DNA from: Verrucomicrobiota bacterium
Lineage (GTDB): Bacteria > Verrucomicrobiota > Verrucomicrobiia > Limisphaerales > JADLHS01
Assembly: GCA_013140495.1 (NCBI GenBank)
Contig: JABFSR010000015.1
Span: forward strand, 11,210 to 75,209
Reading direction: 5' to 3'
DNA: 64,000 bases
The notes under the pieces were generated by a model that was not told the DNA's origin, made no database searches, and was given only the letters and a program-made list of their open reading frames with translations. The position numbers were made by a program, and so were the translations under genes. This document shows, piece after piece, positions 32,571 through 48,740 of the stretch. The stretch's first letter is position 1; each line of letters opens with the position of its first letter.

Positions 32571-32611
32571 TGCCTATTGAAATGAAAAATCTGATTTCCG
32601 CAGCACAAGTT

Positions 32612-32720: not shown

Positions 32721-34507
32721 CGCTGTTGCTGCTGCTACGTATTGACACTTATGCCCAGTCACCCGCACCGCAGCCCGACCCGTTGATGCAGTTGATGATT
32801 TTGCAGCCGCAGATTGACGTTTCATCCGCAGTCGAGGCTCTCGCAATGTTTGACCCGCCAGTCATCCGCGCGGGCGAGTCGGCGACGTACCGTGTTTCGA
32901 TCAATGCACTCAAAGATTCCGTCGCATGGCCCGAGCAAATTGCGACGCCAGCCAAGCTGTTGATCAAGGCTACAGCGCGCGGTGAACTTTTTTCGCAAGC
33001 AGGCAACAAGCTCAAGCCACTCTCGAGCTTCAACCACCGCGTCGGCGCCGTGGAGCCCGGGTCGTATTCAATTCCCGGGTTCGCCGTTGAAGTCTATGGC
33101 AGGTCAGTAACCGTTCCCGCCGCCACGCTCACCGTTCTGCCGAAGACCGCGCCCCCTCCACCTGCATCCACGAGACTTGTCATCGAACCCGGCGCAACGA
33201 ACGTCTTCACCGGCCAGCCCGTTTCAGTGCGAGTAACCGTGCAGACTCCAAGCGGAAGTATTAACCAGGGCTTGACGCAGGTGAAAATCAACGGCGATGG
33301 GTTTCTCACCGACAACTCAAGCGCGAGACAAGCCATTTCCATGCAGCCACACAACGGCACGAACGTGGCGGTTTATTCCTACGAAGTTGTTTTGATCCCG
33401 CTCACTACCGGGCCACTGGAAGTGTCGGCGCAAGGCTTCACCGGCGGCAACCAGTTTGGCGGGCCACTTGCCGTCCAAGTACAGAGTTCGCCAACCGGCA
33501 GCCCGCCACAGCCCGTCCTCCTCGACTCCGATCCTGTCACACTCCGGGTAAATCCGCTGCCATCAGCAGGCAAGCTGCCCGGCTTCACCGGCTTTATAGG
33601 AACGCTCACGAGCGATCCACCTGTAATTGCAACGAACATGGCCCGCGTAGGTGATCCCGTAAAAATGACCGTAACATTTCACAGCCAGGGAAGTCTCACA
33701 CGTTTTGTACCGCCTCCTGCACCAACAGTGCGTGAGTGGCAAACGTTTCCACCATCGCCCACACCAACCAGGGCACCGAACAGCGTGAACTACACCTTCA
33801 CCTTGACGCCGCTCACGAATGGTACACTGACCACGCCTCGAATTCCTTTCAGCTACTTTGATCCTCAACGCGCGACCTATGTTGACCTGACCATTCCGGC
33901 AGTTGCACTGTTTGTCACCAACTCGGAGTCCGTGGTGGATGCGGAGGCATGGTTGCTTGCGAATACACTTTCTGAGTCCGAGAACAATAGGAAGCCCACG
34001 CTCAGTCCGCTTGCAACAACACCAGGCCGCACGGCCTCCACTCTCATCCCCATGCAGACGCGCGCGAGTTTCGTCCTCATGCTGATGTCACCGCTTGTGG
34101 TTTTTGGCGCGCTGTCGGCATGGGATCGCAGACGGCGCTTCCTGGAACAGCATCCGGACATTGTGCGACGGCGCATGGCGCGACGCGCATTCAAACGCGA
34201 ACGTCGAGCGATGGAACAAGCCGCCGCGAGAGGTGATGCCATGGGGTTCGCAGCGCGGGCAGTCAACGCGATGCGCGTGGCCTGTGCGCCACATTTCCCC
34301 GCCGAGCCGCGTGCGCTCGTAGGCAGCGACGTGCTGACGTTGCTTGATCAAGCCTCGCGCAATGGCCGTGTAGGCGAAGTCGTGCGAACACTCTTTGCTG
34401 TGACGGATGAATCTCAATTTGGCAGGACGACTGTGGAGGTGGAGGGGTTGTTGAAGTTGCGGACGGATCTGAATCGCGTGCTGGACGAACTGGAGGCGAA
34501 GTTGTGA
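32702..34507 (+). CDS. batD: BatD-like oxygen-tolerance protein
   Basis: Signal peptide MLVIGASLLLLLRIDTYAQS, long beta-rich ectodomain, and a C-terminal TM FVLMLMSPLVVFGALSAW followed by RRRR. Alternative upstream starts at 32570 and 32582 would translate the repeat. Confidence 0.7.
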   Translation: MLVIGASLLLLLRIDTYAQSPAPQPDPLMQLMILQPQIDVSSAVEALAMFDPPVIRAGESATYRVSINALKDSVAWPEQIATPAKLLIKATARGELFSQAGNKLKPLSSFNHRVGAVEPGSYSIPGFAVEVYGRSVTVPAATLTVLPKTAPPPPASTRLVIEPGATNVFTGQPVSVRVTVQTPSGSINQGLTQVKINGDGFLTDNSSARQAISMQPHNGTNVAVYSYEVVLIPLTTGPLEVSAQGFTGGNQFGGPLAVQVQSSPTGSPPQPVLLDSDPVTLRVNPLPSAGKLPGFTGFIGTLTSDPPVIATNMARVGDPVKMTVTFHSQGSLTRFVPPPAPTVREWQTFPPSPTPTRAPNSVNYTFTLTPLTNGTLTTPRIPFSYFDPQRATYVDLTIPAVALFVTNSESVVDAEAWLLANTLSESENNRKPTLSPLATTPGRTASTLIPMQTRASFVLMLMSPLVVFGALSAWDRRRRFLEQHPDIVRRRMARRAFKRERRAMEQAAARGDAMGFAARAVNAMRVACAPHFPAEPRALVGSDVLTLLDQASRNGRVGEVVRTLFAVTDESQFGRTTVEVEGLLKLRTDLNRVLDELEAKL

Positions 34508-35259: not shown

Positions 35260-35341
35260 CCCTGCCTGATTCGTTTTTGTTGTAGTCCTCGAATATCGCA
35301 CCGGCTTTTCGAGGACTACGTCAAGGAGACTCAATGTAAAA

Positions 35342-35365
35342 CGACGGTGCAAATGTGCAGATTGG
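35342..35365 (+). repeat. Left terminal inverted repeat / transposase-binding site
   Basis: CGACGGTGCAAATGTGCAGATTGG, bracketed by GAGACTC (35326) and GAGTCTC (35365). Confidence 0.55.
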
Positions 35366-35495
35366 AGTCTCAGTTTCAAAACCGCAGTGGATAGGGAAAT
35401 AGCGCCCGGGGTTCATTCCGGTTTTCTCAGCCTTCCCGATCTTGACCGGGAAAAGCGCTTTGTCGTGGCGCGCGAAGGCGCGCAGCGAAATTGGT

Positions 35496-37172
35496 CTAGC
35501 CAGTCAGAACCGGTACCGCCGGTTGAGTCTCGCGACGCCCGGATGCAGAGCCGCTGAAGGCAGGTTGCAAGGGTTGTGAAAGCCGGTTTAACGGCTCGCT
35601 AATTGGCGTGCCAGCAGCCTCAAATTCGTCCGATGGCATCGCCCGGGGACCGCGCCTGGCTTTCACTGGCTTGCTGTCAAAGACGCGCTGTAGCGCCGCG
35701 TCGGAGGGCGCACGCCAGTCTTTAACGGCGGTTTGCAAATCCTTCCCGGTGATACGTTCCCTGCCCGCTCGCTTGGCAATCAGTTGCGCGTCTTCAATGG
35801 CGTCCGTGATGGTTTGGAAATATCCGTGCGAGGCCATCGCATAACCGACAACGAACTCGACGGCAGATTCTCCAAGTCCGTTGAGCAACTTGCGAGCAAC
35901 TGCGCGCAAGTCATCGGTTGTCGGCGCGTCCGGCAGCGGAAACACTTTCCGCGTTCGGCGGCGCAACTGTTCACTGCTCCATGTGGTTTGGTTTTCGACC
36001 ACCTGGCGGCGCAGACTGAATTGCTTGGTTGCGGAGATGGCGAATGGGACACCCTCGTTGTAGAGGGCCGTGTTGATCCAGTTGATCAATTCGGGATGCG
36101 TGGTGATGCGTTTACCTTGAGGCCAGAGATAGTGCCCCTCGTCAATTACCAGAATCAGTTTGGTGCGCTGAAGAAATTCTTCCACGCGCGTTTGAATCCT
36201 ATCTGATGACATGCCCCCGCCGCTAGCCACGCCACAAGCTTTTGCGATCCGCTTCAAGAATGATGTCCGCGAGGTAATGCCGGACAGTTGAACGTAACGA
36301 GCGCGGCCCATGTGCATTTCACACCAGGCTTTGAGCGCTGTCGTCTTGCCAAATCCGGAATTGCCTTCGATGAGTGCGGAGCGTCCGGTATCGAGCGCGT
36401 AGTCCATCGCCTCGAACACGATCTTGCCGATGCTGGTTTCAACGAAGTCAGCGCGGGCGCGTTCGGTGTGGCGATGCTGGTATTCATAGAGCGCGCCGAG
36501 CACGTCTTCAAAGCAGGACAACTCTGCAAACCGAAAATCGTTCTTCTTGTCCAGGGCGGTTTGCAGGTGGGGCCGTTCCCTGGCAATGTGTGGATTGTTT
36601 TCCAGCGCGTGGCGCGCATCGTCCAGCACGAGCCCAACAATTCCACGATAGGCCCGGCACGCGTCAGCGCGTGTGACAACCTCCAGCTTTGGATCGCAGC
36701 AAAGTTCCTCGATGAAGTCGGCCAAATTCCCACAACGATCCCGACACTCCGCGCACAATTCGTTAGCCGCGTTTTCCGGAGGGGTTTCGAGCTTCTTAAC
36801 TTCCGTTTCTCTGTATAGAATTTCATCCCACACATCGGAGTCAGATCGCCCAAATAACTCATCCCGGATGGCAGCGTATTGTTCCTTGGTCAACCGTTTG
36901 CCAGGCTTGCAACCGATCTTGATCATCGTGGGTGTGCCGATGCGCTCCGGGAACATTTCCACCAACTCGCGAGCGATGCGTTTCGTTCCACCTTCGCGCA
37001 ATGACAATGCTTGCAGGAAGTAGAGCAGTTGGCGTTTCTCAGGCTCGTCTTGCAGCGCGGCCTTGAAGGCCACGGCGGTCCCGTTCAGCCCGCGCAACAC
37101 GTCATACTCCGTTGCGGACGCCCAACCATTTTGGCGACGGCGTTCACCTGATTCAACTCGACGCGTGCTCAT
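35496..37172 (-). CDS. MuB/TnsC-like AAA+ transposition ATPase (558 aa)
   Basis: Walker A LIEGNSGFGKTT and Walker B LILVIDEGH (AAA_22-type). Its start overlaps the transposase stop (ATGA). Confidence 0.8.
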   Translation of the reverse strand: MSTRRVESGERRRQNGWASATEYDVLRGLNGTAVAFKAALQDEPEKRQLLYFLQALSLREGGTKRIARELVEMFPERIGTPTMIKIGCKPGKRLTKEQYAAIRDELFGRSDSDVWDEILYRETEVKKLETPPENAANELCAECRDRCGNLADFIEELCCDPKLEVVTRADACRAYRGIVGLVLDDARHALENNPHIARERPHLQTALDKKNDFRFAELSCFEDVLGALYEYQHRHTERARADFVETSIGKIVFEAMDYALDTGRSALIEGNSGFGKTTALKAWCEMHMGRARYVQLSGITSRTSFLKRIAKACGVASGGGMSSDRIQTRVEEFLQRTKLILVIDEGHYLWPQGKRITTHPELINWINTALYNEGVPFAISATKQFSLRRQVVENQTTWSSEQLRRRTRKVFPLPDAPTTDDLRAVARKLLNGLGESAVEFVVGYAMASHGYFQTITDAIEDAQLIAKRAGRERITGKDLQTAVKDWRAPSDAALQRVFDSKPVKARRGPRAMPSDEFEAAGTPISEPLNRLSQPLQPAFSGSASGRRETQPAVPVLTG

Positions 37173-39940
37173 AGGTTTGCCTTTGTGGTTGGCGCGGCCT
37201 GGGATTCAAACTCGTGATAATTCGGCGAGCCGTTGGCCGTGTTCCGCTTGCCGAGAATTGTCGCGTCAATTTTGGATTTCAGATAGGCGCACGCTTCGTC
37301 AAAGCGGGTTTCGTCGTGCGGATCGAAGCCGAGTTGCGAACTTGCGATCTTCGCGGTGATGTGCGGAGCGAAGGTGCCGGCACCTTTGAACTTTTGTCCG
37401 AAGCTCTGACCCGCAGCGCGGAACTCTGTGAGCCGCTTAACCAGATAATCCACATATTCACGCTTGCCGCTGCCGTAAGGTTTCAACACATAGGTCTTCT
37501 TCCCAGACGACGGTGCCGCTGGTATTTCTTCGTCCGCTTCCATCATGGCTCTTTCGGCGCGAGCCATCATGTCCAAACCTTCAGCGGTCTGATCGTCTGA
37601 TTGACGCACCAATGCGGTGGGCAATCCCAGTTTGCGGGCATTGGTTGCGACTTTGGAACGGCGGCGATTGTCCACCTTGTTCTTTTCGTCGTTGTCGAGG
37701 CGCTGTGCGGTGAACGTTGCTGCCACGTCGAAGACGGCGGGCGAAACCAGATTCTTGCGGAACGTCGGGGCGAACTTCGCCTTGAGCACATTGAAACGTG
37801 CCTTTGGATAGGCATTGTGAGCAGCGGCTTTCTCCAACTCCAATTGATAGGCGCGGCCTGCTTCGCCGTCGCGATCCAGCGCGGCGAGAAAGTCCACCTT
37901 GTTTTCGCGGCGCACCAACACCGGATTGCGTTCCTTCAAATCGGTGGCTCCAAGCAGGTCGGGGCACTCAGGATCAAACCACGCCAGCACGGTTTTGCCT
38001 CGCAGTGCAGACGTGTTTTCGTCGCGATAGATGTAAGTCTCGCCGCCGATCTTGAACTTGATGCCTTCAACGCCAACGATGCGCTCACTGACGTAGTGTG
38101 CGAGCAAATGCCAGCAAGTTGAATCCAGCGCGGTCGGCGGATCGTCATGCGGCCAATACGCCTCAAAGGCTTTGTCGGGTGACATGCCCCGCAGAATGTC
38201 CCCCTGCTGAATGGCGGCGTTGTAGCTGCCAATCAGCTTGGCGAGTTCTGCATCCCATGCCTCGAAACTCAGAAAGAGTCCATGCGGTTCAACGCGGCGC
38301 GCTTCCACGGCGAGCTTGTTGCGTTTGGTGACTTCGGGACAATCGCGCCGCTCATCGCGACCGCAATAGCCTAGCATCCGCTCCATCCAATTTTGAAGCA
38401 ACCCTCCAACAAGTTCAGCGGGCTTTGATCGGGCTTTCTTGGCGTGAATGAAGCGCACGCCAAGTTTTTCCCAGCCGGGTTTTTCTTCCGCCCAGGATTT
38501 GCCTTCGTTCCATTCGCGCGGAGCGCCTTTGACCAGGTGGGCGTTTTTCCAGATACCATTTTCAAACAGCCAGGCGCGCGGAAGTCCCCACTGAGCGCAC
38601 GTTCGATTCATCAGCGTTCGGATGATGAGCGAGTTGTAATTGCGTTCTGGTTGCAGCGACCAGCCGATGATCTTGAGCGAGCGGCAATCAATCATCAGCA
38701 GGATTTGGCCGCGCGTAAGATTCCACCAGCCTTTGCCATCCGGCACGAAGCAATAAACCGGCATCGTGAAATCGTCCGCTGTGAGGACGTGCATGGAGCG
38801 CAAGTTCCCGCGGTCGCGCCGCAGTGAAGGCGTCGCATCGTCAACGGCTTTTTTGCCGAGCAGATAAGGCGCGATCAATTCCGAATCGCGATGCACGATT
38901 GAGAACAAGCGCCGGTTCACATGGCTCTTGCTCTTTTTCGGTGCGGTGATGAGTGCGACGGTTTCCGGCGTGAGGCCGGACTTGCTGCCTTGCTCTGCCA
39001 GTTCGCGCACGGCTTGCGCGGTGCGTCCTCCGCAGTTCTGTGCGGAGTGCCACGCCATGATGTCCACGTCGCCTTGTGAAATGGCAGCGGCGCGGGACTC
39101 GCCGCGTTTCAGTTCGCGCCCGTCAAGCAATGACGATTCACCTTTGACTTTGCGATCAAAGTTCACGCGTAACGCATTCCACGAAGCGGCGAGAAACGGC
39201 GCGCGCTGCCAGAGAAAATCCAGCAATCGGCGCTTGAACTTTTTCGGGTTTGTGGCGTCCACCATTTCGGAAAACAGTTCAACAGCTTCAGTCCAAAGTG
39301 AGTCCATCTCCGCGCCATTGGGCTTCAGTGGATCGCCAAAGCGAGCGATGCAATCGTTCAGCGGTTCAAAGTCGGTCGCATTGGCAACCGTCACGTGCTG
39401 TGCGTTGGCAGAGGCGCGTTTGAGATTGCCAGGCAGAAATAATTCCGGTCTGTGAAATTGTTCCGCACCGCGATCCCGATCCAACGTGCGGTTGAACAGA
39501 TAACGCCAGCGGTCGGGCGCGATGTCGCGGCCAAACTCACGCGAGTAATTGCGCAGGCCGATTTCAACCAGTTCACTGCCATCCAGGATCGGGCTGCGAT
39601 GGCGTTCCAGGATCGGGAGCAAGGCGCGTTGCAACTTGAGCGCGTCGGTTTGCTGTGCGTTGTCCACGTCGCGCCAGGGAAACTCTGGTTTCCACGGTTC
39701 GGCTTCATTGAACAAGGCCGCAACTGTCGCAAGGATGCGCTTGATGCGAGCGGCTTCCAATTCCTTTTGCAGCGAGGCGGGCAAGGCTTCCAAACTCCAT
39801 TGCGATGTGAGATTGCCACGCACCACACATTCACCGGACGGCGTGATGCCATCCAACGCACGACGGATCAAGCGCGGCGACTTGCCGAGCGCGGCGGCGA
39901 TCTGTGTGGCGGTGGTGGTGAATTGTCCTGGCGTCGTCAT
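37169..39940 (-). CDS. MuA/TnsB-family DDE transposase (923 aa)
   Basis: N-terminal HTH. RNase H-fold core VLTADDFTMPV ... LLMIDCRSLKIIGWSL ... WLFENGIWKN ... KARSKPAELVGG is colinear with the MuA D269/D336/E392 region. Confidence 0.85.
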   Translation of the reverse strand: MTTPGQFTTTATQIAAALGKSPRLIRRALDGITPSGECVVRGNLTSQWSLEALPASLQKELEAARIKRILATVAALFNEAEPWKPEFPWRDVDNAQQTDALKLQRALLPILERHRSPILDGSELVEIGLRNYSREFGRDIAPDRWRYLFNRTLDRDRGAEQFHRPELFLPGNLKRASANAQHVTVANATDFEPLNDCIARFGDPLKPNGAEMDSLWTEAVELFSEMVDATNPKKFKRRLLDFLWQRAPFLAASWNALRVNFDRKVKGESSLLDGRELKRGESRAAAISQGDVDIMAWHSAQNCGGRTAQAVRELAEQGSKSGLTPETVALITAPKKSKSHVNRRLFSIVHRDSELIAPYLLGKKAVDDATPSLRRDRGNLRSMHVLTADDFTMPVYCFVPDGKGWWNLTRGQILLMIDCRSLKIIGWSLQPERNYNSLIIRTLMNRTCAQWGLPRAWLFENGIWKNAHLVKGAPREWNEGKSWAEEKPGWEKLGVRFIHAKKARSKPAELVGGLLQNWMERMLGYCGRDERRDCPEVTKRNKLAVEARRVEPHGLFLSFEAWDAELAKLIGSYNAAIQQGDILRGMSPDKAFEAYWPHDDPPTALDSTCWHLLAHYVSERIVGVEGIKFKIGGETYIYRDENTSALRGKTVLAWFDPECPDLLGATDLKERNPVLVRRENKVDFLAALDRDGEAGRAYQLELEKAAAHNAYPKARFNVLKAKFAPTFRKNLVSPAVFDVAATFTAQRLDNDEKNKVDNRRRSKVATNARKLGLPTALVRQSDDQTAEGLDMMARAERAMMEADEEIPAAPSSGKKTYVLKPYGSGKREYVDYLVKRLTEFRAAGQSFGQKFKGAGTFAPHITAKIASSQLGFDPHDETRFDEACAYLKSKIDATILGKRNTANGSPNYHEFESQAAPTTKANL

Positions 39941-39945
39941 TATGG

Positions 39946-41499
39946 TCAGACTGAAAAGCGGTGGCTGTTGCGTTTCATGGCACTGATGGCGATTGCTTCG
40001 ATGTCATCTCGGCAGGCATCAAGCCACGCTTGCCTGTCAACGTAGTTATGGAGCGTAAATTTGACGTTTTTATCGCCAGACGGCGCAGTCATCGCCGATG
40101 GACCCTTTTGTATCACCGCCATGTTTTGGTGTCCCCAATCACGCACGCTGTCGGCTGGAATCACCCACTCGTTTTTGTGGACAACACCTGCAACCTGGCT
40201 GCTGTCGCCTGTGCCGGTGTAACCACCTGCCAAAAATCCCGTCGCATTGATGGCGGCGACCTGTGCGGCACCGGCGGCGATGGCCGCGCCCGCCGCAATC
40301 GGTGCGAGCACGGGACCGATGAACGGGATCCCGACAACCGAGCTGTAGGCGGCGATGGCCGATTTGTAGGTGTTGATCGTGGCCTCGGCGATGGCGAAAG
40401 TTTTATAGGCAACGATCCCCTGACGCCCGAAGGCTTTTGCGGCAATGGCCATGTTCCCGAACATGGTCTGCGTGCCGGTCAATTGTTCTTCGCGAATGCG
40501 TTTGAGTTTTTCCTGGTTGGCTTTTTCGATTTCGACCCTGTTGTCAACGATTCCATTCCGGTTCTGTTCGAGAGTCAGGATTGCCGAGAGGTCTTCGAGT
40601 TCAAGCTCTCGAAACTGTTGGCGGGTGATTAGTCCATCATTGAATTTTTCCGCCGTCTCTGCCCGCTTTGCGTCCACGAGGCTGATCTGGTAGCCGATCT
40701 CATTCAGTTGGGCCTTCTCTTTTTCCAATTCCGAAAATCCGAGGCTGCCCCGGCTGGTGTTAACGCTTGAGAGAGATGCTTCAACTCCGGCAACTCTGCG
40801 GGATTCCTTCAAGCCCTCCATGACGGCCTTGTTTTCGGGTAGCCTCATTCCGGCGGCAATCTTTCGCAGCGAATCAGAGGCGGCTTCGTTCGTCTTTGCC
40901 AGTGTCCTCGCCGCCGCAACCTGCTCCTCGAGTTTCATCAGATCGTCCGACGACATTTTGCCCGCTGCTTCGCGGGCCCTGCCCACCTTGAGGATGCTTT
41001 CAGCCAGCGCCTCGTTGGCGAGGGCGGTCTGGTGTGTGGCAGCCCCTTCAGCATGGATTGCCGCATACATTTCCTTGAGGTGTTTCGCGATAAAAAACAC
41101 TTCCAGCGCCGAGACGATCACCCCCGCCGCCTTGGCAACCTGCAAACCCGCGCTCATTGTCTTCTGCGCAGCGGAAGCGGCCTGATGCAAATCCTTGAAA
41201 ACACTGACGGCGGACTGGAGCGCCATGGTCATTTGTGGCGCGATAAAAAAGCCGATGTGCGACCCTGCGCGGGCGAAAGCGTTCAACGCGCTGAGACTCC
41301 CCTTGGTGGCGATGTTTATTTGCGCCTGGCCCGTTGCCATTTTTTGGGAAGCAACAGAAGCCCTGCTGGCGGCGACAGAAACAGCGGCGGAAGCCGCCGC
41401 AATGTTGCCCAATCCCGCCGTGGTTGTGGCTGCAAATTTTGAGAACTCCGCGGCGGCCTGGGCCGCGTTGGCCGTGACTGTGAATGTTACGTTGGGCAT
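39946..41499 (-). CDS. Tape-measure-like protein (517 aa)
   Basis: Ala/Gln-rich helical protein with a hydrophobic segment and the TMP-type motif ATGFLAGGYTGTGDSSQVAGVVHKNEWVIPA. Confidence 0.6.
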   Translation of the reverse strand: MPNVTFTVTANAAQAAAEFSKFAATTTAGLGNIAAASAAVSVAASRASVASQKMATGQAQINIATKGSLSALNAFARAGSHIGFFIAPQMTMALQSAVSVFKDLHQAASAAQKTMSAGLQVAKAAGVIVSALEVFFIAKHLKEMYAAIHAEGAATHQTALANEALAESILKVGRAREAAGKMSSDDLMKLEEQVAAARTLAKTNEAASDSLRKIAAGMRLPENKAVMEGLKESRRVAGVEASLSSVNTSRGSLGFSELEKEKAQLNEIGYQISLVDAKRAETAEKFNDGLITRQQFRELELEDLSAILTLEQNRNGIVDNRVEIEKANQEKLKRIREEQLTGTQTMFGNMAIAAKAFGRQGIVAYKTFAIAEATINTYKSAIAAYSSVVGIPFIGPVLAPIAAGAAIAAGAAQVAAINATGFLAGGYTGTGDSSQVAGVVHKNEWVIPADSVRDWGHQNMAVIQKGPSAMTAPSGDKNVKFTLHNYVDRQAWLDACRDDIEAIAISAMKRNSHRFSV

Positions 41500-41502
41500 A
41501 GG

Positions 41503-41934
41503 TCAGAATTTTGCGGTTGGACAGGCGGTGCGGACTTTCTTGATGAGATCGAAACGGAGCATCTGCCGGAACAGGTCGGCGATCTCTTTCAAGTCGGGTG
41601 CGGGTTGTGGGTTGGTGCGAAACAACAAGATGGCTGACTCTGCCTGCGATTCGAGCAACGGCGAAATTCTGGCGACCAGCTTGAGCCATTCCTTTTTGAG
41701 TTCAACCTTGCGAACCAGAAGCGCGCGGAGTGCATCCAGTGTGGCAAGCTGCTTGTCATCCTCCAACGCCTCGAACCGGACCCAGTGGACTTTGTTTAGC
41801 GCGATTTCGTTTTTAAGCTTGTCGGCTTCCTTGTTCAACAGTGCCGCACCGCCCGCCAGCGCGTTCGCCTCAATCGTGACGTCGAAGAGCAGGGCTTGAA
41901 GTTTGTCCGGGTTGGTGGTTGATGAAGAATTCAT
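41503..41934 (-). CDS. Hypothetical helical/acidic protein (143 aa), in the position of a tail-assembly chaperone
   Basis: Sits immediately upstream of the TMP-like gene (3-nt gap). Overlaps the upstream ORF by 4 nt. Confidence 0.55.
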   Translation of the reverse strand: MNSSSTTNPDKLQALLFDVTIEANALAGGAALLNKEADKLKNEIALNKVHWVRFEALEDDKQLATLDALRALLVRKVELKKEWLKLVARISPLLESQAESAILLFRTNPQPAPDLKEIADLFRQMLRFDLIKKVRTACPTAKF

Positions 41935-42359
41935 GGCGCGGGTGATTCTTTAGCCAGGGGCGAGTTTGCGCTGACTATTTTGTCCACGGCGGATTGCACT
42001 CTTGGCAACCATGCAATTGGATCGGCCAGTCCATCGCGGCACCGTCTGAAACTTCCCCAACTCAAGCCCGCCTTGCGCGTCATTTCACGCTGGCTGATGT
42101 GCTCGACTTCAGCATGATTAACCAGTTTCACAATCTCGCCTCTCAATTGGTCCTTGGCCGAGGCTTTCCGGGTGGCGATTCCCAGCCTTCGGTTCATTGC
42201 CTTTTGCCAACGGACACCCAACCCATGTTTTTCCGCTTCTGACTGAGTCAGCTGGAAGGCCACAGTAGCGCGCTGCTGCTGGGCCAAGGCCCTTGGCCCA
42301 ATTTTGCCACTCACTATATCGGACGCCCTGTTTTGAGTGCTGGCGGCGAGACGGTTCAA
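41931..42359 (-). CDS. Hypothetical protein (142 aa)
   Basis: 4-nt overlaps with both neighbours. Protein-like composition. Confidence 0.55.
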   Translation of the reverse strand: MNRLAASTQNRASDIVSGKIGPRALAQQQRATVAFQLTQSEAEKHGLGVRWQKAMNRRLGIATRKASAKDQLRGEIVKLVNHAEVEHISQREMTRKAGLSWGSFRRCRDGLADPIAWLPRVQSAVDKIVSANSPLAKESPAP

Positions 42360-42946
42360 GTGATCCTCCTTGGGGTGGATTTGAAGCCGGTGACGAAGCG
42401 GGCAAATCGCCGTTGCTCAGAGCGATGTTTGCGACGCGATTTGAGCAGCCGACGAACCGGCGCGCGTAATGTCGAAGGCAGGGCTCGGCTGAAAAAGCTC
42501 CATTTGAATTGGGATTGCAACCCGCCTGATGACTTGATGAAACCAGCGTGCATGGTCAGCACGTCCGGATCGGCAACGGCGTTCACGTATCGCGCCAGAT
42601 GCTTGAGCGTTGGTTTGAGCTTTGCTGAAGTCCCGTAACGTAGCGCGATGGCTTCAGGTGTGCGGCCACCGGTTAGCCAGGTGTAGAAACAACGGCGCAA
42701 TGTGGAGATGGAGAAGCGAACCCGTTTGCTGCTGTCTCGCCGAAAAAACTCTCCACGCCAATAAAAGGCGAAAGGCCGGAAGGATTCGGTTACCGATTTG
42801 CCTTTTTTTCGGGCTTGTTCAACACGGATGAATTGCCGGTGCAGGCGTGTTGCACGCTCGCGATTCCATGGGGACAGACGCAGAAATTCCGATCTGGTCA
42901 GCGGATTTGAGTTTGAAGATGAACAGCGGCGGCGGTTCGGGTTCAT
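42356..42946 (-). CDS. Hypothetical highly basic protein (196 aa), possibly DNA-binding
   Basis: Arg/Lys-rich. First gene of the tightly coupled block ending in MuA/MuB. Confidence 0.55.
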   Translation of the reverse strand: MNPNRRRCSSSNSNPLTRSEFLRLSPWNRERATRLHRQFIRVEQARKKGKSVTESFRPFAFYWRGEFFRRDSSKRVRFSISTLRRCFYTWLTGGRTPEAIALRYGTSAKLKPTLKHLARYVNAVADPDVLTMHAGFIKSSGGLQSQFKWSFFSRALPSTLRAPVRRLLKSRRKHRSEQRRFARFVTGFKSTPRRIT

Positions 42947-42980
42947 GCGATTTAGGGCGGTGGCGAATTGGAAAAGAGGC

Positions 42981-43010
42981 GTGTTGGCATCTCCGCCGAG
43001 ATGTCAACAC
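42981..43010. promoter_or_regulatory. 13-bp-stem palindrome inside the element operon
   Basis: GTGTTGGCATCTC-CGCC-GAGATGTCAACAC (12/13 complementary), in the only sizeable intergenic gap of the operon. Confidence 0.4.
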
Positions 43011-43079
43011 GCGAGCAGCAGTTATAGGTCCTCACGGGAACGGGTCGCTCTGTGCTCAAAATTATTTTGGCGGAAGCTT

Positions 43080-43826
43080 TCACGCGATCCGCCTCCGTTT
43101 TAGGAACTCCACAACGCTTGAAAATTCCACTTCAGGCGAGCCTGTTGGCCCGCGACGAAACTTCGCTCCCTTTGCCAATCGCATCTCGCCATCGCGAACC
43201 AAACGCGCAGCGTGGTCGTGGTTGATGCAGAGGCGGCGATAAATGGTGACCGCCCGGACGGTTTGAATGCCGCCCGGTTTGGTTGTCACCGCTGGGAAAA
43301 TCAACCGCACCGCCTGGTTGAATTGTTCTGCGTCGGATGCTGTTGAGACGGGTTTGCGGTTCTGAAAGTCGGCAAGCGACTGCGCGAGTATCCGCACAGC
43401 GACCCGCTTGCAACCACAACTTGAGAAATCAAAAGCGAAGGCAATCCTGCCTTCCTCAATCGCCGCAAAAACTTTTTCTTCAGGCACAGCCAGCGCGGCG
43501 ACTGCGGTACCGAGATTAACCAGCGGAAGTTTGAAGCTGATCTGCGGGGTCGTGGTTGTGAGCATATTGTTGCACGTGGAACTTTGTTGCCCCCAAAAGC
43601 TGATAGTCCCCGCCATGAAACAAACAACCGCCGTCAACATCACAAGATAAAGCGCGCGGCGGAGGGGAGCACCGCGCGTGCTCAGGCCATTAAAGATCGA
43701 ACTAATGCCAGAGCAAAATTGTAAAGCGCCGCCCGGTGCAGTTCTGAAACACCAGGCGGCGCGCGCAACCGGAATAAACGCACCCTTAACATTGGCGCGG
43801 CAAACGTTGGCTGCGTGAGTTTTCAT
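43080..43826 (-). CDS. Hypothetical protein with two excisionase/MerR-like (HTH_17-type) segments; alternative start ATG 43565
   Basis: LVNLGTAVAALAVPEEKVFAAIEEGRIAFAF and VRAVTIYRRLCINHDHAARLVRDGEMRLAKG resemble HTH_17 helices. The N-terminal 87 aa (one TM) are of uncertain reality. Confidence 0.5.
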   Translation of the reverse strand: MKTHAANVCRANVKGAFIPVARAAWCFRTAPGGALQFCSGISSIFNGLSTRGAPLRRALYLVMLTAVVCFMAGTISFWGQQSSTCNNMLTTTTPQISFKLPLVNLGTAVAALAVPEEKVFAAIEEGRIAFAFDFSSCGCKRVAVRILAQSLADFQNRKPVSTASDAEQFNQAVRLIFPAVTTKPGGIQTVRAVTIYRRLCINHDHAARLVRDGEMRLAKGAKFRRGPTGSPEVEFSSVVEFLKRRRIA

Positions 43827-43853
43827 GTTCGTTGGCGGTTGCTATTTGCGCGT

Positions 43854-44324
43854 TCAACCGCGTCGCGGCTTCTTCAACAACTTGAGCGTGGTGTTGGTGC
43901 CTGAAGCGGAAGCGTCAAAGTTTTGCGCGCTGAATCGCAGGTGACTGACACTGCCAATCTCCGAGTTTGGCAGTTCGCGGTAATAAACAACCGTGGTGTT
44001 GCCAGCCAGCGCGTTTGTCCATTTGAGATAGGCCGTGGTTTCCCAGTTTGTGCCGTCACCACGGAAAACGCTGATGACCACATTGCCGGTCCCGGCCTGT
44101 GAGCCTGTGGTGGTCAACAGCAGTCCTGCCGAGTCGTATTTCGTAATGGCGTTTGTCGCGAAGGCAGACCATGTGGAGTTGTTCGTGATGGTCTGCCCGT
44201 TAAGCAGTGCATCTCCGGTGAACTGCTGGGCACTGGCGCGGGATGCGGTCAACGACACTGACGCAAGCAACGACAGACAGGCCATGATCAATGGACCTGC
44301 GTTTCGGAATTGTTTTGTGTTCAT
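43854..44324 (-). CDS. Small secreted beta-rich protein (156 aa)
   Basis: Signal peptide LIMACLSLLASVSLTASRASAQQ. T/N/S/G-rich mature part. Confidence 0.6.
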   Translation of the reverse strand: MNTKQFRNAGPLIMACLSLLASVSLTASRASAQQFTGDALLNGQTITNNSTWSAFATNAITKYDSAGLLLTTTGSQAGTGNVVISVFRGDGTNWETTAYLKWTNALAGNTTVVYYRELPNSEIGSVSHLRFSAQNFDASASGTNTTLKLLKKPRRG

Positions 44325-44397
44325 GGATTTGAGGGTTGAGTTTTGTTGTTTAACTGAGGGCGACGCTTTGGAGCATCCGCCCTCAGCCGTTTTAGGT

Positions 44398-45636
44398 TTA
44401 TGCCGCTGGCAAAGTCAGCACAGCGAATGCAGTTGCCGCACGCACGCGACCGCCCGCGCGGGCGATGCTGCGGAAGCTGCGCTGGTAGTAATCCCATTTG
44501 TGGTGATCGCTGCCGTCGAATTGGAATTCCTTCCGCATCGCGAGGTAGTAACCCATCGGATCGCCGAAGGCCGCAATCTTGGCGTTTGCCGCATCCGTGC
44601 TGGGCGCGGCGTGTGACATTTGAATCGCGTAGCCGAGAATTCCGCCAATGGCTTTGAAGTCCGGGCGCTCCAGGAGCGATTGGAAGATCGGGCGGCCCAT
44701 GCCGTCTTTGACCAACATCGCCTTTGCCAGAATGGTTGGATGCAACCACCAACGGGCATCGCGTGTGAGGACTTCCGGCGCAACCGCGGTGAGGCAGCGA
44801 ATCCAGTCATCAAAGTCCGTTGTCCCAACGGTGGTGTTCCCCGCAGCCGCAGCCGCAGCGGTGCCGCCATAGAAAATGCCGGTGAAACCGCCGTCCGTTA
44901 CATTCGCTCCGGCGTTTGCAGCAATAGCCATGTGGTCAAGCCGACGATTCGTGGCGTTGCGAAACTTGCGCAGCACGCGGCTGGTGAGATCGTATTCGGC
45001 ATCGTCGAGCAAGGTTTGGAAAACGTTGATCAACGTGGCAAAAATCTTCACCGATACAGTCGGCGCTTCGCCGGCCGCGTTTTCATCGTCTGGAATTTGT
45101 GTTCCCTCGCTAATGATGACGCAGACCGGATCGGCAGTGTCCACCGGCACCGTTGTGGTTTTGCTGCCAACCAACTCCACGTCGAACATTGGCCAAACGC
45201 CAAATGTTGAAAGCACATCGTAGATTTCCCGGGCCATGCCGCCGGTGATGTAGCCGCTCCCCGGAGATGTATCTTCACCCAGGGCTTTCTGGAGATGTTC
45301 CGGCAATCGCTCGCCGGTCTTGAGCAGCGTCTTGCGCGCGAGTGCATTGAAGCGCTCTGATTTTTCTTCGTCGTCAGTGATGCGCTTGATGGGATCGCCG
45401 AAGGCCGCGATGTTCGCGCGCTGAACAAGGCTTTGCACTTCCTCGATTTTGCGCACGAGTGATTTGAAACTGCCGTCAGTGTTGTTGCCAAACTTTTTGA
45501 GCTTTTCAATATCCTCAAAGGCTTTGCGGGTTTCCTTGTCCAGGCGGGATACGTCGGTGAGGATGGTCTTTTGTGTTCCGTGCAGGCTCGTGATGCCTTT
45601 CTCAATTTTGTCCAGTAAATCAATGTCTTCGTTCAT
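44398..45636 (-). CDS. HK97-fold phage major capsid protein (412 aa)
   Basis: N-terminal coiled-coil delta-like domain (DLLDKIEKGITSLHGTQKTILTDVSRLDKETRKAFEDIEKLKK). Phage_capsid-type C-terminal blocks GGILGYAIQMSHAAP ... AAFGDPMGYYLAMRKEF. ATGA overlap with the upstream ORF. Confidence 0.8.
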   Translation of the reverse strand: MNEDIDLLDKIEKGITSLHGTQKTILTDVSRLDKETRKAFEDIEKLKKFGNNTDGSFKSLVRKIEEVQSLVQRANIAAFGDPIKRITDDEEKSERFNALARKTLLKTGERLPEHLQKALGEDTSPGSGYITGGMAREIYDVLSTFGVWPMFDVELVGSKTTTVPVDTADPVCVIISEGTQIPDDENAAGEAPTVSVKIFATLINVFQTLLDDAEYDLTSRVLRKFRNATNRRLDHMAIAANAGANVTDGGFTGIFYGGTAAAAAAGNTTVGTTDFDDWIRCLTAVAPEVLTRDARWWLHPTILAKAMLVKDGMGRPIFQSLLERPDFKAIGGILGYAIQMSHAAPSTDAANAKIAAFGDPMGYYLAMRKEFQFDGSDHHKWDYYQRSFRSIARAGGRVRAATAFAVLTLPAA

Positions 45637-46265
45637 AACGGTTGTAGCTTTTGCCCGGTTTGCGGGTGTATTTTGCACCGCTTCGTGAATGGTTCCCGCC
45701 CCTTGCCAGGCTTCAAATGCGCCAAGGGGAGCAAGAGCTTTTGAAGCAGTTTCGTGAACCGATTTGATGTGGTGTTGCCCGCAATTGCGGGTCTTGGCTC
45801 GTTGGCAGTTGCCGGATGAGGGCTTGCGGCAAGTCCGGCTCTGGGCTGCAAGTCCAAACTGACTGACGAAAAATCAAGGCGCTCTCCAGGCACGGGCCAA
45901 TAAGCGACCAGCGTGCGATGCTGTTCGGAAACGAACACGCGCGCGAAGCGGAGCAAGCCGATGCGGCGAAGCACAGCCAAGGCGGCATCGCGCACAATCT
46001 CCACTGCGGACGCGCGCAGGATAAACCAACGTTGGCCGGGAATATCCACCGTGCATTCAAACGCACCGGAGGATTCAGGGAATCCCGCTGCCAGCAGCCG
46101 TGGCAAGTCGCGCTTGTTGAGGGGATGACGATCTGTAAATCCATCAAAGCAGACCGCGACCGCATTGCCGACCCGATCCAACACGGGAACGAGTTGGTTG
46201 GCGTGGAGGAAAAGTTCCGAGACAACCTCATCTGTGGGCTGCAAGCGTGGTGTTATGGTTTTCAC
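45633..46265 (-). CDS. Hypothetical protein (210 aa) upstream of the capsid gene
   Basis: GTG 46265 overlaps the Ner-like stop (GTGA). The stop overlaps the capsid ATG. No protease or portal motifs recognised. Confidence 0.5.
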   Translation of the reverse strand: MKTITPRLQPTDEVVSELFLHANQLVPVLDRVGNAVAVCFDGFTDRHPLNKRDLPRLLAAGFPESSGAFECTVDIPGQRWFILRASAVEIVRDAALAVLRRIGLLRFARVFVSEQHRTLVAYWPVPGERLDFSSVSLDLQPRAGLAASPHPATANEPRPAIAGNTTSNRFTKLLQKLLLPLAHLKPGKGREPFTKRCKIHPQTGQKLQPL

Positions 46266-46471
46266 GCGGTGGCCTTGGGTTGGTTGGCGGTGCGTTGCTG
46301 GTTTTTCAAGGTGCGGTAGCGGGCGAGCAATGGTTTGGATTCCCGCTTGTCGGTCAGCACAGCTTGTAGATGCTGACGTGATACGCAGAGCCTTCGGGCA
46401 TCGCCGCAAATTCCGGCTATGCGCTCGGCGCGTTTTTGCTTCGCGCTTTGGCTTTGGCAACTTATCGTCAC
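46262..46471 (-). CDS. Ner/Cro-like small HTH regulator (69 aa)
   Basis: KRAERIAGICGDARRLCVSRQHLQAVLTDKRESKPLLARY resembles Ner/HTH_35-type regulators. Divergent from the XRE repressor. GTG start. Confidence 0.5.
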   Translation of the reverse strand: MTISCQSQSAKQKRAERIAGICGDARRLCVSRQHLQAVLTDKRESKPLLARYRTLKNQQRTANQPKATA

Positions 46472-46495
46472 GGCGACAATTGATAGACGTAAATT

Positions 46496-47263
46496 ATGCC
46501 TGATGCAACAAATAAATTGCTTTTAGCTAAAACTGTAGGCGACCGGCTCGGTTGGCTGCGCGAGTTCAAAGGGTTGACGCTTCAGCAATTCGCAGAGCGT
46601 GTCGGCTGTGATGCGGGTTACTTGAGCAAACTGGAAACCGGCAAGGCCAAACAACCATCTGACCGATTCTTAAAAGTTGTCAGAGATACATTCGCCGTAA
46701 GATCGGATTGGCTTTGGGAAGGGGATGGTGATCCGTTTTTTGAAAATGAGGCTGGAGTTAAAGCCAAGCCCGCAGAAAAGTGGCTTGAAGACAGGGCGCA
46801 ACGTGTCCATGGAGTAATCAGTGATCTGCCAGATGAGTTGGCGGTTCATGATGTGCTCGCCAGAATTCTTCGCGACATGCCTCGGACTTTAATTTTTGAA
46901 CGCTGGATGGAAATCAGCAATCTCCCGGACTTACCTCTTTCGGCGCAGTGGTTCTGGCAAAAGGGGTTTCTTCACGAGATTGAAAAACGGCTAAAAGCCG
47001 AAGCCGAAGCCGGTCGCATAACAGCTATTGACATTGTTCACGACTCCGTGAATACTGGCGAGGTGAAAGCGCAATGGCCTCTACTTAAAAAGAAACTCCA
47101 GTTGGCAACAAAGCCAGATGGGGCGAAGACAAAACTGGCGGACTTCCTTGGAGTGAAAATCGCCAGCGTCTCGCAGTGGTTGTCAGAGTCGAAGAGCAAG
47201 AGAGAGCCGAGCGCTGAGTATGCGCTTCAGATGCAAGAATGGCTGAGGCGACCACAAACCTAA
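46496..47263 (+). CDS. XRE-family HTH repressor (c-like), 255 aa
   Basis: LTLQQFAERVGCDAGYLSKLETGKAKQPS, plus a second C-terminal HTH-like segment LADFLGVKIASVSQWLSE. Confidence 0.8.
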   Translation: MPDATNKLLLAKTVGDRLGWLREFKGLTLQQFAERVGCDAGYLSKLETGKAKQPSDRFLKVVRDTFAVRSDWLWEGDGDPFFENEAGVKAKPAEKWLEDRAQRVHGVISDLPDELAVHDVLARILRDMPRTLIFERWMEISNLPDLPLSAQWFWQKGFLHEIEKRLKAEAEAGRITAIDIVHDSVNTGEVKAQWPLLKKKLQLATKPDGAKTKLADFLGVKIASVSQWLSESKSKREPSAEYALQMQEWLRRPQT

Positions 47264-47325
47264 AACAAAACGCCCCGGCGAGTGCGTCAACACCAGCCGG
47301 AGCTAGACCCGAATGAAAGAACCCC

Positions 47326-47889
47326 ATGAAGAGAACAAACACCCGAGTCCGCCGTGACTCTTCCAAAAAAACGGCCAATCCACAAGTCCCGAAAAACCTC
47401 ACGTATGGAAGGTGTCTGACTTCCAAGGAATTCAAGGTGGTGGCGCTCCGGGAGTGTCCGTTGCCAGATGAGATGAAAATTTGTGATGCCCCACACAGCG
47501 CCGCTGGTTATTGGCAGGCCACCATCCCGAGTGCGCCGCAGTTCAACCCTGACAAAGAATGCCTGGTGGTATTGATCTTGAACACAAAGCGGCGGTGTGT
47601 GGGGCATGTAATCGAGAGCGTTGGAAACAGAGACACATTATTGGTCGATGTGGGAAGTGTGTTTCGGGCGGCGGTTATTGCCAATGCAAGCGCCATCGTC
47701 GTAATGCACAATCATCCGAGCGGCGAATCAAATCCGTCGGAGTTGGATATTAAAGTCACCCGCGATCTCATCAAGGCCGGGAATTTATTACGGGTGACTG
47801 TGTGCGACCACGTAGTCATGGGCAAACCCACAGCGGCCAATCCCAAGGGATATTCGTCGTTGAGGGAACTGGGTTATTTCTTCGCGTGA
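47326..47889 (+). CDS. RadC-like JAB/MPN domain protein
   Basis: VVMHNHPSGESNPSELDIKVTRDLIKAG (JAMM motif HxHPSG...S..D). Confidence 0.85.
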   Translation: MKRTNTRVRRDSSKKTANPQVPKNLTYGRCLTSKEFKVVALRECPLPDEMKICDAPHSAAGYWQATIPSAPQFNPDKECLVVLILNTKRRCVGHVIESVGNRDTLLVDVGSVFRAAVIANASAIVVMHNHPSGESNPSELDIKVTRDLIKAGNLLRVTVCDHVVMGKPTAANPKGYSSLRELGYFFA

Positions 47890-47914
47890 GGCCGGTGAAC
47901 TCGAAAGGAAAATT

Positions 47915-48133
47915 ATGACACGAGCCATTGAACAGAGTCTCTACGCGCAGATGCAGAGCGCGCAAGAGTTGGAGCGCAACGCCAGGGAGACGCTCTCGCA
48001 GGCGCATAAAGCCTACGCGTCCGCGCGCAAGGTGTTCGTGCGTCATCGTGCGGAATGGATCAATGCGTTTGATGAACTAGAGCGGCAACAGCCCGCGCCG
48101 CTTCGGGCCTTCGCCTTCGGAGGTGTGAGATGA
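47915..48133 (+). CDS. Hypothetical coiled-coil protein (72 aa)
   Basis: ATG start, helical composition, and a stop overlapping the next small ORF. Confidence 0.45.
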   Translation: MTRAIEQSLYAQMQSAQELERNARETLSQAHKAYASARKVFVRHRAEWINAFDELERQQPAPLRAFAFGGVR

Positions 48134-48240
48134 AAGCTGCGGTGCGTGACATGAATCAGGAACGGAAGGCCGTGCGCTTTGAGTTGAAGGCGCGTTATGC
48201 GTTGTGGCGTCGGCGTGAGGATCGAAACGCGGGCAATTGA
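48130..48240 (+). CDS. Hypothetical 36-aa basic peptide
   Basis: ATGA overlap with the upstream ORF, followed by a terminator. Below the ORF-track size cut-off. Confidence 0.3.
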   Translation: MKAAVRDMNQERKAVRFELKARYALWRRREDRNAGN

Positions 48241-48257
48241 ACTGCGGGATGCCTCCG

Positions 48258-48297
48258 CGCCGGATGAGTCGAGAGACTTGTCCGGCGTTTTTGTTTT
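48258..48297 (+). terminator. Rho-independent terminator of the element's plus-strand operon
   Basis: CGCCGGATGAGTC-GAGA-GACTTGTCCGGCG followed by TTTTTGTTTT. Confidence 0.6.
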
Positions 48298-48459
48298 GTG
48301 GCTAGAGAAAGGCTGGCGAGGGCAGTGGTACCGAGCGCAACCAGGCAGGCGGAAGGCGGCGTGCAGCGCGGTTTCAGATGGCTTGCAATTGGGCTTTAGC
48401 GAGGGATTAAAAGGGCGGGGCAGGGTGCGTGTTGGGGTGTTGCTAGGCAAATCTTGCCT

Positions 48460-48719
48460 CGTGGGACATCTGCACATTGATGGTTTGGTCCCACGTCAGA
48501 AACGCAATGTGCAGAATCACGGTTGGACGTGGGACAAACTCACAGAACCCCTGTTTTTATAGGCTGGAATCGTGTCCCACGTCATTCTGCACATTTGTAA
48601 AAAACGCCTCTTTTTGAAGCCTGCTGAAATCAAGATGTTTTTGCCACGCAAGTCATTGATTTTCGGTATTCTTCGGCCTCATTCGGGCTATTTCGGCATT
48701 CTGCACAAATGCGCCGACG
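48460..48719. repeat. Right-end repeat cluster: four TGTGCAGA-type sites, GTCCCACGTC/GACGTGGGAC palindromes, four phased TTCGG repeats
   Basis: TCTGCACA at 48469, 48586 and 48700. TGTGCAGA at 48508. GTCCCACGTC at 48488 and 48574. GACGTGGGAC at 48526. TTCGG at 48662/48672/48682/48692. Confidence 0.6.
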
Positions 48720-48740
48720 AGACTCATCAATAATGAAAAT

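Follow-up and report, generated by a model that had tools for sequence, protein, structure and literature searches.

Several described systems come close to the locus reported here, each in a different respect. The satellites called cf-PICIs encode a portal, a protease, adaptors and TerS, the small terminase. Ty3 and Dictyostelium TRE are eukaryotic elements with an RNA intermediate, and read Pol III transcription factors. CRISPR-associated transposons (CASTs) of types V-K, I-B2 and I-D insert downstream of tRNA genes with constant spacing and orientation (PMC10293859), and in a survey of TnsC homologues target selectors are taken to be missing from the Mu clade (PMC10293859). We analyzed a 64,000-nucleotide stretch of a Verrucomicrobiota contig (JABFSR010000015.1; the whole stretch is called the window) that carries a compact transposable element with a phage capsid gene, and compared this element with related loci, which are given L-numbers (e.g., L006).

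The element occupies positions 35335-48726 of the window, is complete at 13,392 bp, and has 5'-TG...CA-3' ends. An earlier, sequence-only reading had proposed a compact element of ~13.4 kb at 35334-48718, between the Bat operon (to 35259) and a tRNA-Leu gene (from 48741). The compact element stands, as do its neighbors, which are borne out by open reading frame (ORF), profile and ARAGORN calls, whereas the termini of relatives moved the ends to 35335 and 48726. The element is a Mu-type transposon that targets tRNA genes. As a whole, we read it with moderate confidence as an intact, probably active member of a compact family, and one that is probably also a phage satellite. The predicted transposition features, and the neighboring target, are as follows.

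35331-35334, no strand: left copy of the target-site duplication, TCAA, the same 4 nt at both termini
35335-35362, plus strand: MuB-side terminal inverted repeat, TGTAAAACGACGGTGCAAATGTGCAGAT, beginning 5'-TG
35496-37172, minus strand: predicted MuB-like AAA+ target-capture ATPase (B), 558 aa; AAA_22, 8e-12; phrog_296 'DNA transposition protein', 1.5e-24
37169-39940, minus strand: predicted MuA-like DDE transposase (A), 923 aa; phrog_310 'transposase', 7e-24
48460-48600, no strand: subterminal repeat array, TCTGCACA paired with GTCCCACG, three copies in both orientations
48699-48726, plus strand: repressor-side terminal inverted repeat, TTCTGCACAAATGCGCCGACGAGACTCA, ending CA-3'
48727-48730, no strand: right copy of the target-site duplication, TCAA
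48741-48825, minus strand: tRNA-Leu(GAG) called by ARAGORN, the target landmark, with its CCA end 14 nt from the element terminus

Insertion downstream of tRNA genes

What sets the element apart most is where it inserts, at a precise 14 nt past tRNA genes on their downstream side. Across 34 oriented loci, a tRNA gene called by ARAGORN lies 13-16 nt (mostly 14) from the terminus, measured from the CCA end. The targets are tRNAs for Leu (four anticodons), Val, Arg (three anticodons), Ala, Met, Gly and Asp, and one called as Pro; the window element and its three closest relatives occupy four different tRNAs. The repressor end faces the tRNA in 31 of the 34 loci, and the MuB end in the other three (L075, L081 and L082). 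Because the offset is the same in these three loci, the tRNA is not part of the element. Two further members, L013 (~1100) and L027 (~2090), lie 14-15 nt after a tRNA 3' fragment made up of T-arm, acceptor and CCA, which ARAGORN did not call. Integrase-type islands may have left such fragments behind as duplicates of tRNA ends, and the fragments suggest that the final ~35 nt of a tRNA gene are a sufficient DNA signal. With 34 loci and two tRNA fragments at the fixed offset, insertion is not near-random.

Scans of the window ORFs and of 148 cargo proteins from relatives (see below) revealed no TniQ/TnsD, TnsA or Cas families, though a remote TniQ fold is possible. An element-borne guide was considered and rejected: the longest match of an element to its own tRNA is 8-15 nt, no better than its matches to the tRNAs of other elements. 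We propose that the target would be read as DNA, through the conserved sequence of T-arm and acceptor in tRNA genes, and that the extra N-terminal domains of B, A or both would be the reader. A and/or B are implicated because a mini-element of 4,329 bp (L061, 9327-13655), consisting of an 80-aa ORF, A and B, sits at the same type of site, with a perfect TCAC duplication 15 nt past tRNA-Arg. In two mini-elements, A and B are accompanied by no more than one or two small ORFs; the 4.3-kb L061 is one, and L077 (8685-13162, 4.5 kb) is the other, which has neither a tRNA nor matching flanks. A host factor or mobilization in trans may also lie behind the choice of tRNA.

We thus see a MuA/MuB-type system that inserts precisely and in an oriented manner at many tRNAs, with neither a TniQ/TnsD nor a CRISPR component. 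Its tRNA-reading domain, once found, would be a new kind of selector and possibly a compact tool for safe-harbor insertion.

The 14-nt spacers between tRNA and element are alike (GYCTTCGC...) in L001, L033, L039, L046, L064 and L067, where a tiny hairpin is possible and where the tRNAs and the metagenome-assembled genomes (MAGs) differ. This likeness could come from the host, as a trait of the sequence that follows its tRNA genes, or could belong to the target signal. A second tRNA gene in the window, Arg(TCT) at 6185-6261, is unoccupied, and its 3' end (...agacgcacca) is much like occupied ones.

Transposition proteins and element ends

The genes for A and B are adjacent and overlap by 4 nt. 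No Pfam model matches A, including the rve and Mu-transposase models. Comparison of its family profile with PDB sequences gave MuA (4fcy, 0.0017) as the sole solved-structure match. An AlphaFold (AF2) model of A based on 31 homologues (pLDDT 79.6) likewise had the Mu transpososome 4fcy as its top Foldseek match (1.8e-13), with a TM score of 0.66 to the MuA core; TnsB of Tn7 and of V-K CAST come next, followed by retroviral integrases. Among viral proteins, a siphovirus transposase matches best (3.5e-16). Candidate catalytic residues D389/D390, E460 and E509 are invariant in the family alignment and are aligned to MuA D269, D336 and E392; the second catalytic residue of A appears to be Glu. About 350 aa precede this core. 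The model supports A as a DDE transposase of the MuA/TnsB fold.

B is a predicted MuB-type AAA+ ATPase encoded beside the transposase. The best PDB match of its family profile is MuB of phage Mu (8xvb, 8e-6), with TnsC at 0.03. Its N-terminal extension of ~250 aa, by which it exceeds MuB, is conserved. The Walker A motif and the acidic triad are invariant across family alignments. Because the best sequence and fold matches of the pair are MuA and MuB, the earlier designation of the element as Mu-type holds.

Both ends of the element are formed by 28-nt terminal repeats with TCTGCACA sites. The MuB-side terminus consists of TCTGCACATTTGC followed by 14 nt that end in TTTACA. It is kept in ten relatives, including L001, L005, L010, L013, L016, L017, L052, L076 and L082, and beyond the ACA the sequences of relatives diverge at once. 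The repressor-side terminus, which reads TGAGTCTCG... on the reverse complement, is common to the window element, L006 and L017. The imperfect terminal inverted repeat described by the sequence-only reading exists (pair I11, 23 nt, 78%) and ranks 11th among chance-level repeats. Exact matches to its core, TCTGCACAWWTG, occur three times in the 64-kb window, all of them at the element ends and in mirrored orientation; because the core is confined to the ends, we regard the repeat as above chance.

Candidate transposase sites of the TCTGCACA type number one on the MuB side (terminal) and four on the repressor side (the terminal site and three subterminal ones). A layout of three sites (terminal, +114 and, inverted, +~80) is also found in L001, L006 and L017. 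TG...CA termini with multiple subterminal repeats, here putative binding sites, are features of Mu-type elements. ORF121 (48197-48562, plus strand) overlaps the subterminal array, and a 144-aa ORF (48043-48477, minus strand) is antisense to it. Neither has homologues beyond a weak match in L006, L009 and L017, and both may be non-coding end sequence.

Identical 4-nt flanks are present in 14 of 22 elements with curated termini (the window element and 13 relatives), where the termini were set by conserved sequence and the probability of a chance match is 1/256 per element. A distant member, L083, has a 5-bp duplication, the sole such case among the 22. The 8-nt direct repeat GAGACTCA noted earlier is present at both positions, but the target duplication is the 4-bp TCAA: the right copy of the 8-nt repeat is the element's own terminal 8 nt (reverse complement TGAGTCTC), conserved in L006, L009 and L017, which rules the repeat out as the duplication. 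A candidate empty site was also rejected. The rebuilt 23-nt batE/tRNA-Leu junction had one exact metagenome hit (L089), which shares nothing else and is a chance match.

Contigs that end exactly at the ends of an element are a product of assemblers when the element has more than one context. MAG contig L009 (12,370 bp) starts exactly at the repressor-side terminus and stops exactly at the other, and contig L006 stops exactly at one terminus, which argues for recent mobility of the family. The window copy itself looks functional, and is probably active, because the invariant residues including Walker A GKT are present, the ORFs are full length and the duplication is intact.

To the left of the element lie a BatD-like ORF (32564-34507) and a TPR/SH3 BatE-like ORF ending at 35259. 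A hairpin with a perfect 12-bp stem (35282-35319, GTAGTCCTCGAA...TTCGAGGACTAC), probably a bidirectional terminator, separates the end of batE from the insertion point. The insertion point falls between tRNA-Leu and this hairpin; read-through from tRNA-Leu would therefore run into the element along the direction of the ner-to-B operon.

Fixed-distance, fixed-orientation insertion past a conserved gene is also typical of Tn7 at glmS and of V-K, I-B2 and I-D CASTs at tRNA genes, and in structure and sequence comparisons TnsB and TnsC rank directly behind MuA and MuB. These observations would suit a Tn7-like transposon of the TnsB/TnsC type, with a dedicated attachment site and phage genes as cargo. 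However, MuA and MuB outscore TnsB and TnsC, no TnsA-like or TniQ/TnsD-like gene is recognized in any member, and the duplication is 4 bp rather than 5 bp. Moreover, close relatives use many tRNAs instead of one attachment site, and the repressor/ner-like switch and the head genes are phage-like. We therefore consider a Tn7-like origin very improbable, and the common insertion geometry a functional resemblance only.

The family, its cargo and its phage relatives

A search with the transposase returned 147 homologues, down to ~37% identity, many of them on contigs of 12-17 kb; those with a taxon label are in Verrucomicrobiota or Limisphaerales MAGs. A profile scan of one genome per species detected 77 loci, nearly all in Verrucomicrobiota MAGs. 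In all, ~80 related loci show one coherent compact architecture with intact ends, ORFs and 4-bp duplications. We delimited 26 complete elements, whose ORFs were called by a simple script and clustered. In the shared plan, one strand carries the repressor, sometimes with RadC, and the divergent long operon runs from the ner-position protein through a head module, DNA-binding proteins and the protein family C3 to A, B and the element end. The DNA-binding cargo is C4 (ORF248 in the window), C5 (ORF196), or C11 with HTH_28/29. Full-size members verified by target-site duplication measure 12,635-13,874 bp; with L009, the family spans 12.4-13.9 kb, a range that holds although A identity drops to ~30%. 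The A/B clade is seen only in elements of at most 14 kb and never in a larger phage.

Some single MAGs hold at least two divergent members: JANPGI01 (L009, L032), CAVXLO01 (L034, L037), DASYYL01 (L039, L050) and JASHPN01 (L014, L055). These co-resident copies have 35-85% A identity to the window copy and, where ends are visible, lie at different tRNA genes. The loci L017, L018, L025, L038, L062, L026/L040, L048, L056 and L068 come from MAGs titled Bifidobacterium, Pseudomonadales, Hyphomicrobiales, Desulfobacteraceae or Limnocylindria. Because their elements and tRNA flanks resemble Verrucomicrobiota ones, these bins are probably mis-binned or mislabelled.

Profile searches agree with the earlier list of recognizable genes in the window element (MuA, MuB, TMP-like, capsid, XRE and RadC/JAB). 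Those other than A and B, and the ORFs between them, are as follows.

39946-41499, minus strand: tape-measure-like (TMP-like) protein, 517 aa, family C3; seven TMP PHROGs, 9e-20 to 1e-5
41503-41934, minus strand: ORF143, predicted coiled-coil; no profile match; 4-nt overlap with the next ORF at its end
41931-42359, minus strand: ORF142, family C16; in phages, its homologues are flanked by the genes for large terminase and portal
42356-42946, minus strand: ORF196, family C5, basic, with a helix-turn-helix (HTH)-like motif TLRRxFYxWxxGGxxPEAL; in 12 of the 26 complete elements
43080-43826, minus strand: ORF248, family C4, probably an HTH_17 excisionase-type DNA-binding protein, with an N-terminal hydrophobic segment
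43854-44324, minus strand: ORF156, probably secreted, judged from the signal-peptide-like N-terminus in its sequence
44398-45636 (ORF to 45678), minus strand: predicted HK97-fold major capsid protein, 412 aa as called; PF05065, 8e-26; TIGR01554, 8e-35
45633-46265, minus strand: ORF210, start uncertain (maximal ORF to 46460); an ATGA overlap couples it to the capsid gene; no profile match
46262-46471, minus strand: small gene that opens the long operon, 69 aa, family C8, at the Ner/Cro position
46496-47263, plus strand: XRE-family repressor, 255 aa, divergent from the long operon; HTH_3, 3.6e-10; HTH_31, 6e-10
47326-47889, plus strand: RadC-like JAB-domain protein, in a subset of relatives; PF04002, 2e-27

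The HK97-type capsid assigned by the sequence-only reading is consistent with both sequence families, PF05065 and TIGR01554, and with its AF2 model (pLDDT 81). In Foldseek, this model matches RcGTA (6tb9, 1.7e-14), HK97 (2ft1, 1e-11) and also cf-PICI capsids (range 1e-14 to 1e-11). The 412-aa protein is thus predicted to have the HK97 fold, and its N-terminus is modeled as a helical delta domain of ~120 aa.

Apart from A, B, the TMP-like protein and the capsid, neither strand of the window element has a further ORF of more than 275 aa, so a large terminase or portal cannot hide in it. Pfam, PHROG and TIGRFAM-type profile scans found no terminase, portal, tail or lysis genes in the element. This bears out the claim that packaging, portal and tail machinery are missing; with only the capsid and TMP-like genes present, the element is not a complete transposable phage. 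Integrase families were absent from every library scan of the window ORFs and the relatives' cargo.

The TMP-like C3 gene always adjoins A, is the best conserved cargo gene, and is found in most family members. Its profile gave nothing meaningful among PDB sequences. In L016, the C3 gene (12419-13906) lies between A and B and not upstream of A, a position that hints at a functional tie to the transposition genes.

Other cargo genes are less easily classified. ORF196 has no Pfam, PHROG, PDB or PADLOC match, and a homologue search returned ORF196 alone. Three proteins in the pooled cargo match PF12728 HTH_17 at 7e-7; the pooled scan does not name proteins, and we assign the matches to C4 because ORF248 has two excisionase-like HTH segments. 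In related phages, C4 homologues adjoin the ner-like/XRE switch. A local C16 hidden Markov model (HMM) matches L133 (6381-6989) and L092 (inside an ORF at 1898-3007), in each case between ORFs the size of TerL, the large terminase, and of a portal. ORF156 has no homologue among the relatives or phages compared and is present in the window element only. C8 is the first gene in most relatives and in related phages. It has no Pfam or PHROG match, so its description as Ner-like is retained for its position and for its conserved small HTH-like family, and not for any profile. Most relatives keep the XRE repressor, at 6-8 kb upstream of A. The coding region of RadC contains a 20-nt inverted repeat (pair I8, 47486-47505 and 47588-47607) that is 95% complementary, its arms 82 nt apart.

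A pooled scan of 148 cargo proteins of at least 150 aa from the 26 elements found Phage_capsid (9), Mu gpI-like protease (6), HTH_17 (3), GemA (2), a single Mu-type portal, many TMP PHROGs, and no terminase. By local HMMs, an HK97 capsid is present in 16 loci and a Mu-like protease/scaffold, fused or split, takes its place in ~21; some family capsids are protease-capsid fusions. The Mu-type portal gene (PF06074, 2.5e-54) is in L029 (6674-8281), at the usual position of the TMP-like gene, and this element has no capsid gene.

These cargo genes raise the question of whether the element packages itself, as a self-sufficient tailless virus-like or gene-transfer-agent-like particle in which the transposition complex or the enlarged B replaces terminase and portal. 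It has its own capsid gene, whose predicted delta domain could self-scaffold, and the membrane-active TMP-like protein, the constant element size and the 250 aa by which B exceeds MuB would fit. Yet we know of no HK97-lineage system that packages DNA without portal and terminase, and self-packaging runs against known assembly in that lineage. In addition, most family members have no capsid gene, and the conventional Mu-type portal of one member implies ordinary head assembly. We give this explanation almost no weight.

The nearest relatives of the window capsid (45-50% identity) are in phages with a large terminase, a portal-MuF fusion, a protease and tail genes, whereas capsids of sister elements are only 26-33% identical to it. 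Because the window capsid is closer to phage capsids than to those of sister elements, head modules appear to be exchanged with phages. IMG/VR contigs with a window-type capsid are 30-42 kb when complete. The capsid-related phages also carry homologues of the XRE repressor, the ner-position protein, C4, C16 (between TerL and portal) and C3 (in the tail block); element-type A/B genes were not found in them. In one such phage, L170 (IMGVR_UViG_3300033121_002247, 11814-16911), the early operon encodes C4, a 221-aa ORF, a 687-aa protein, a B-like protein and, after it, a Mu Gam-like protein. The B-like protein is a 375-aa AAA_22 protein with a weak phrog_296 match. The 687-aa protein at the A position has no Pfam, PHROG or PDB relative and is not detectably related to the element A; it was considered as a transposase, and this could not be shown. 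L170 is itself probably a transposable phage, and the 687-aa protein may belong to another unrecognized transposase family.

Phages of 30-42 kb with Gam-like and B-like genes thus carry homologues of the regulatory, capsid, C16 and TMP-like genes, and the element's gene set is too small for a virion. Both facts could mean that the element is a decayed Mu-like prophage, its structural genes deleted and now immobile. This idea is largely refuted and seems scarcely credible to us. The A/B clade is confined to elements of at most 14 kb, and the A-position protein of related phages is not detectably related to the element A. Furthermore, the same compact architecture recurs at ~80 loci with ends, ORFs and 4-bp duplications intact, and some contigs break exactly at the termini. 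A coherent element rather than a one-off remnant, as first proposed, is therefore indicated.

A phage satellite is the interpretation of the family that we prefer. We infer it because the size is narrow (12.4-13.9 kb, about one third of that of related phages), because capsid-building and capsid-shaping modules are interchangeable and no member scanned has a terminase, and because the regulatory module is shared and the capsid exchanged with phages. A small, size-constrained genome that has kept capsid genes while virion functions are missing is characteristic of satellites; integrase-mediated integration, which is also characteristic, is replaced by apparent DDE transposition with target duplication. 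As a satellite, the element would stay repressed beside a tRNA gene until the development of a helper phage induced it. Its own A and B would then copy or mobilize it, and it would be packed into small capsids made from its own capsid protein, with portal, terminase, tail and lysis functions coming from the full-size helper.

Several observations weigh against a satellite life or against parts of the account given above. No A relatives were found among 2.9 million IMG/VR viral contigs or 50,697 phage records, so there is no sign of encapsidated copies. Neither a small terminase nor a pac site was recognized, the 64-kb window shows no helper prophage, and no helper was identified in this genome. 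The window element has a capsid gene with no recognizable protease, scaffold or portal, ~10 family members have no head gene recognizable by local HMMs, and the conserved TMP-like gene fits no known satellite strategy. Matching flanks are absent from 8 of the 22 curated elements, the N-terminal profile of B found no relative among PDB sequences, and gene calls in relatives come from a simple ORF caller and small HMMs.

The same absence of a terminase, pac site, identified helper and viral-contig copies would be expected of an anti-phage island, a transposon that never enters particles and whose phage-derived cargo acts as decoys that poison phage assembly, to the benefit of host and element. 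Consistent with such an island, the cargo consists of single parts of multi-protein assemblies and varies between members. There is also precedent, since assembly-interference defenses borne on mobile elements have been reported (PMC11364771). However, no cargo matches PADLOC defense models beyond generic HTH, and the island would predict neither the narrow size range nor protease-capsid fusions that look fully functional for maturation. We consider it unlikely. Interference and a satellite life are not mutually exclusive, as known satellites do both.

Beyond the satellite interpretation itself, it is conceivable, and we suggest it only tentatively, that these are the first transposable phage satellites. 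A and B would replace integrase and replicon and would have evolved a recognition of tRNA genes that needs no selector (neither TniQ nor a guide RNA), the ~45 tRNA loci per genome would serve as safe sites, and the elements would make or remodel small capsids in order to travel with transposable helper phages of Verrucomicrobiota. In partial coverage of the literature on transposable satellites, tRNA-targeting Mu-like elements and Verrucomicrobia Mu-like phages, we found no such element described, which agrees with the sequence-only reading. To our knowledge, tRNA-gene targeting without a recognizable selector and transposition as the means of moving a satellite-like, capsid-bearing element are both new. 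The family was probably overlooked in MAG annotation because Pfam transposase models miss these elements and none is in IMG/VR. If they are satellites, they add transposition as a mode of mobilization, and the phylum Verrucomicrobiota, to satellite biology, and offer a natural series of capsid, protease/scaffold and portal swaps on one chassis.

Comparison with known systems

Like Mu-like phages ('Saltoviridae'), the element has adjacent, overlapping genes for a predicted MuA-fold DDE transposase and a MuB-like AAA+ partner, TG...CA termini, several subterminal repeats as putative transposase sites, and a divergent repressor/small-regulator switch. Sister elements carry Mu gpI-like protease, Mu gpH-like portal and GemA-like domains. 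However, the element is one third the size of Mu and has no terminase, tail or lysis genes. Its A and B genes are at the far end of the operon, whereas those of Mu directly follow ner; its duplication is 4 bp, whereas that of Mu is 5 bp; and it targets tRNA genes precisely, whereas Mu inserts near-randomly. Unlike MuA, its A protein is too divergent for the Pfam rve and Mu models and apparently has Glu as the second catalytic residue, and unlike MuB, its B protein has a 250-aa N-terminal extension.

With cf-PICI, P4, PICI, PLE and PICMI, the element shares a size of 10-15 kb, about one third of that of the putative helper, and control by a repressor. Head genes are exchanged with phages, as in phage satellites. 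Like cf-PICI, it has a partial morphogenetic set with its own HK97 capsid, and the capsid of EcCI2 is among the best fold matches. In contrast to satellites, it has neither integrase nor replication initiator and appears to be moved by Mu-type transposition. It also differs from cf-PICI in that the window element lacks a small terminase and portal and a TMP-like gene is conserved.

Tn7-like transposons at tRNA sites have a transposase/AAA+ pair from the same superfamilies and also insert at a fixed offset past a tRNA. Unlike Tn7-like elements and CASTs, the element has no TnsA, TniQ/TnsD or Cas, uses many tRNA species, makes a 4-bp duplication, contains no sequence matching the adjacent tRNA, and encodes proteins closer to MuA/MuB.

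Ty3 and Dictyostelium TRE resemble the element by analogy only. They too combine a capsid protein and a DDE-family enzyme with nucleotide-precise homing to tRNA genes, and have no homology with it beyond the RNase H-fold catalytic core. With its capsid gene, its predicted DDE enzyme and its insertion beside tRNA genes, the element is a bacterial parallel to Ty3-like elements.

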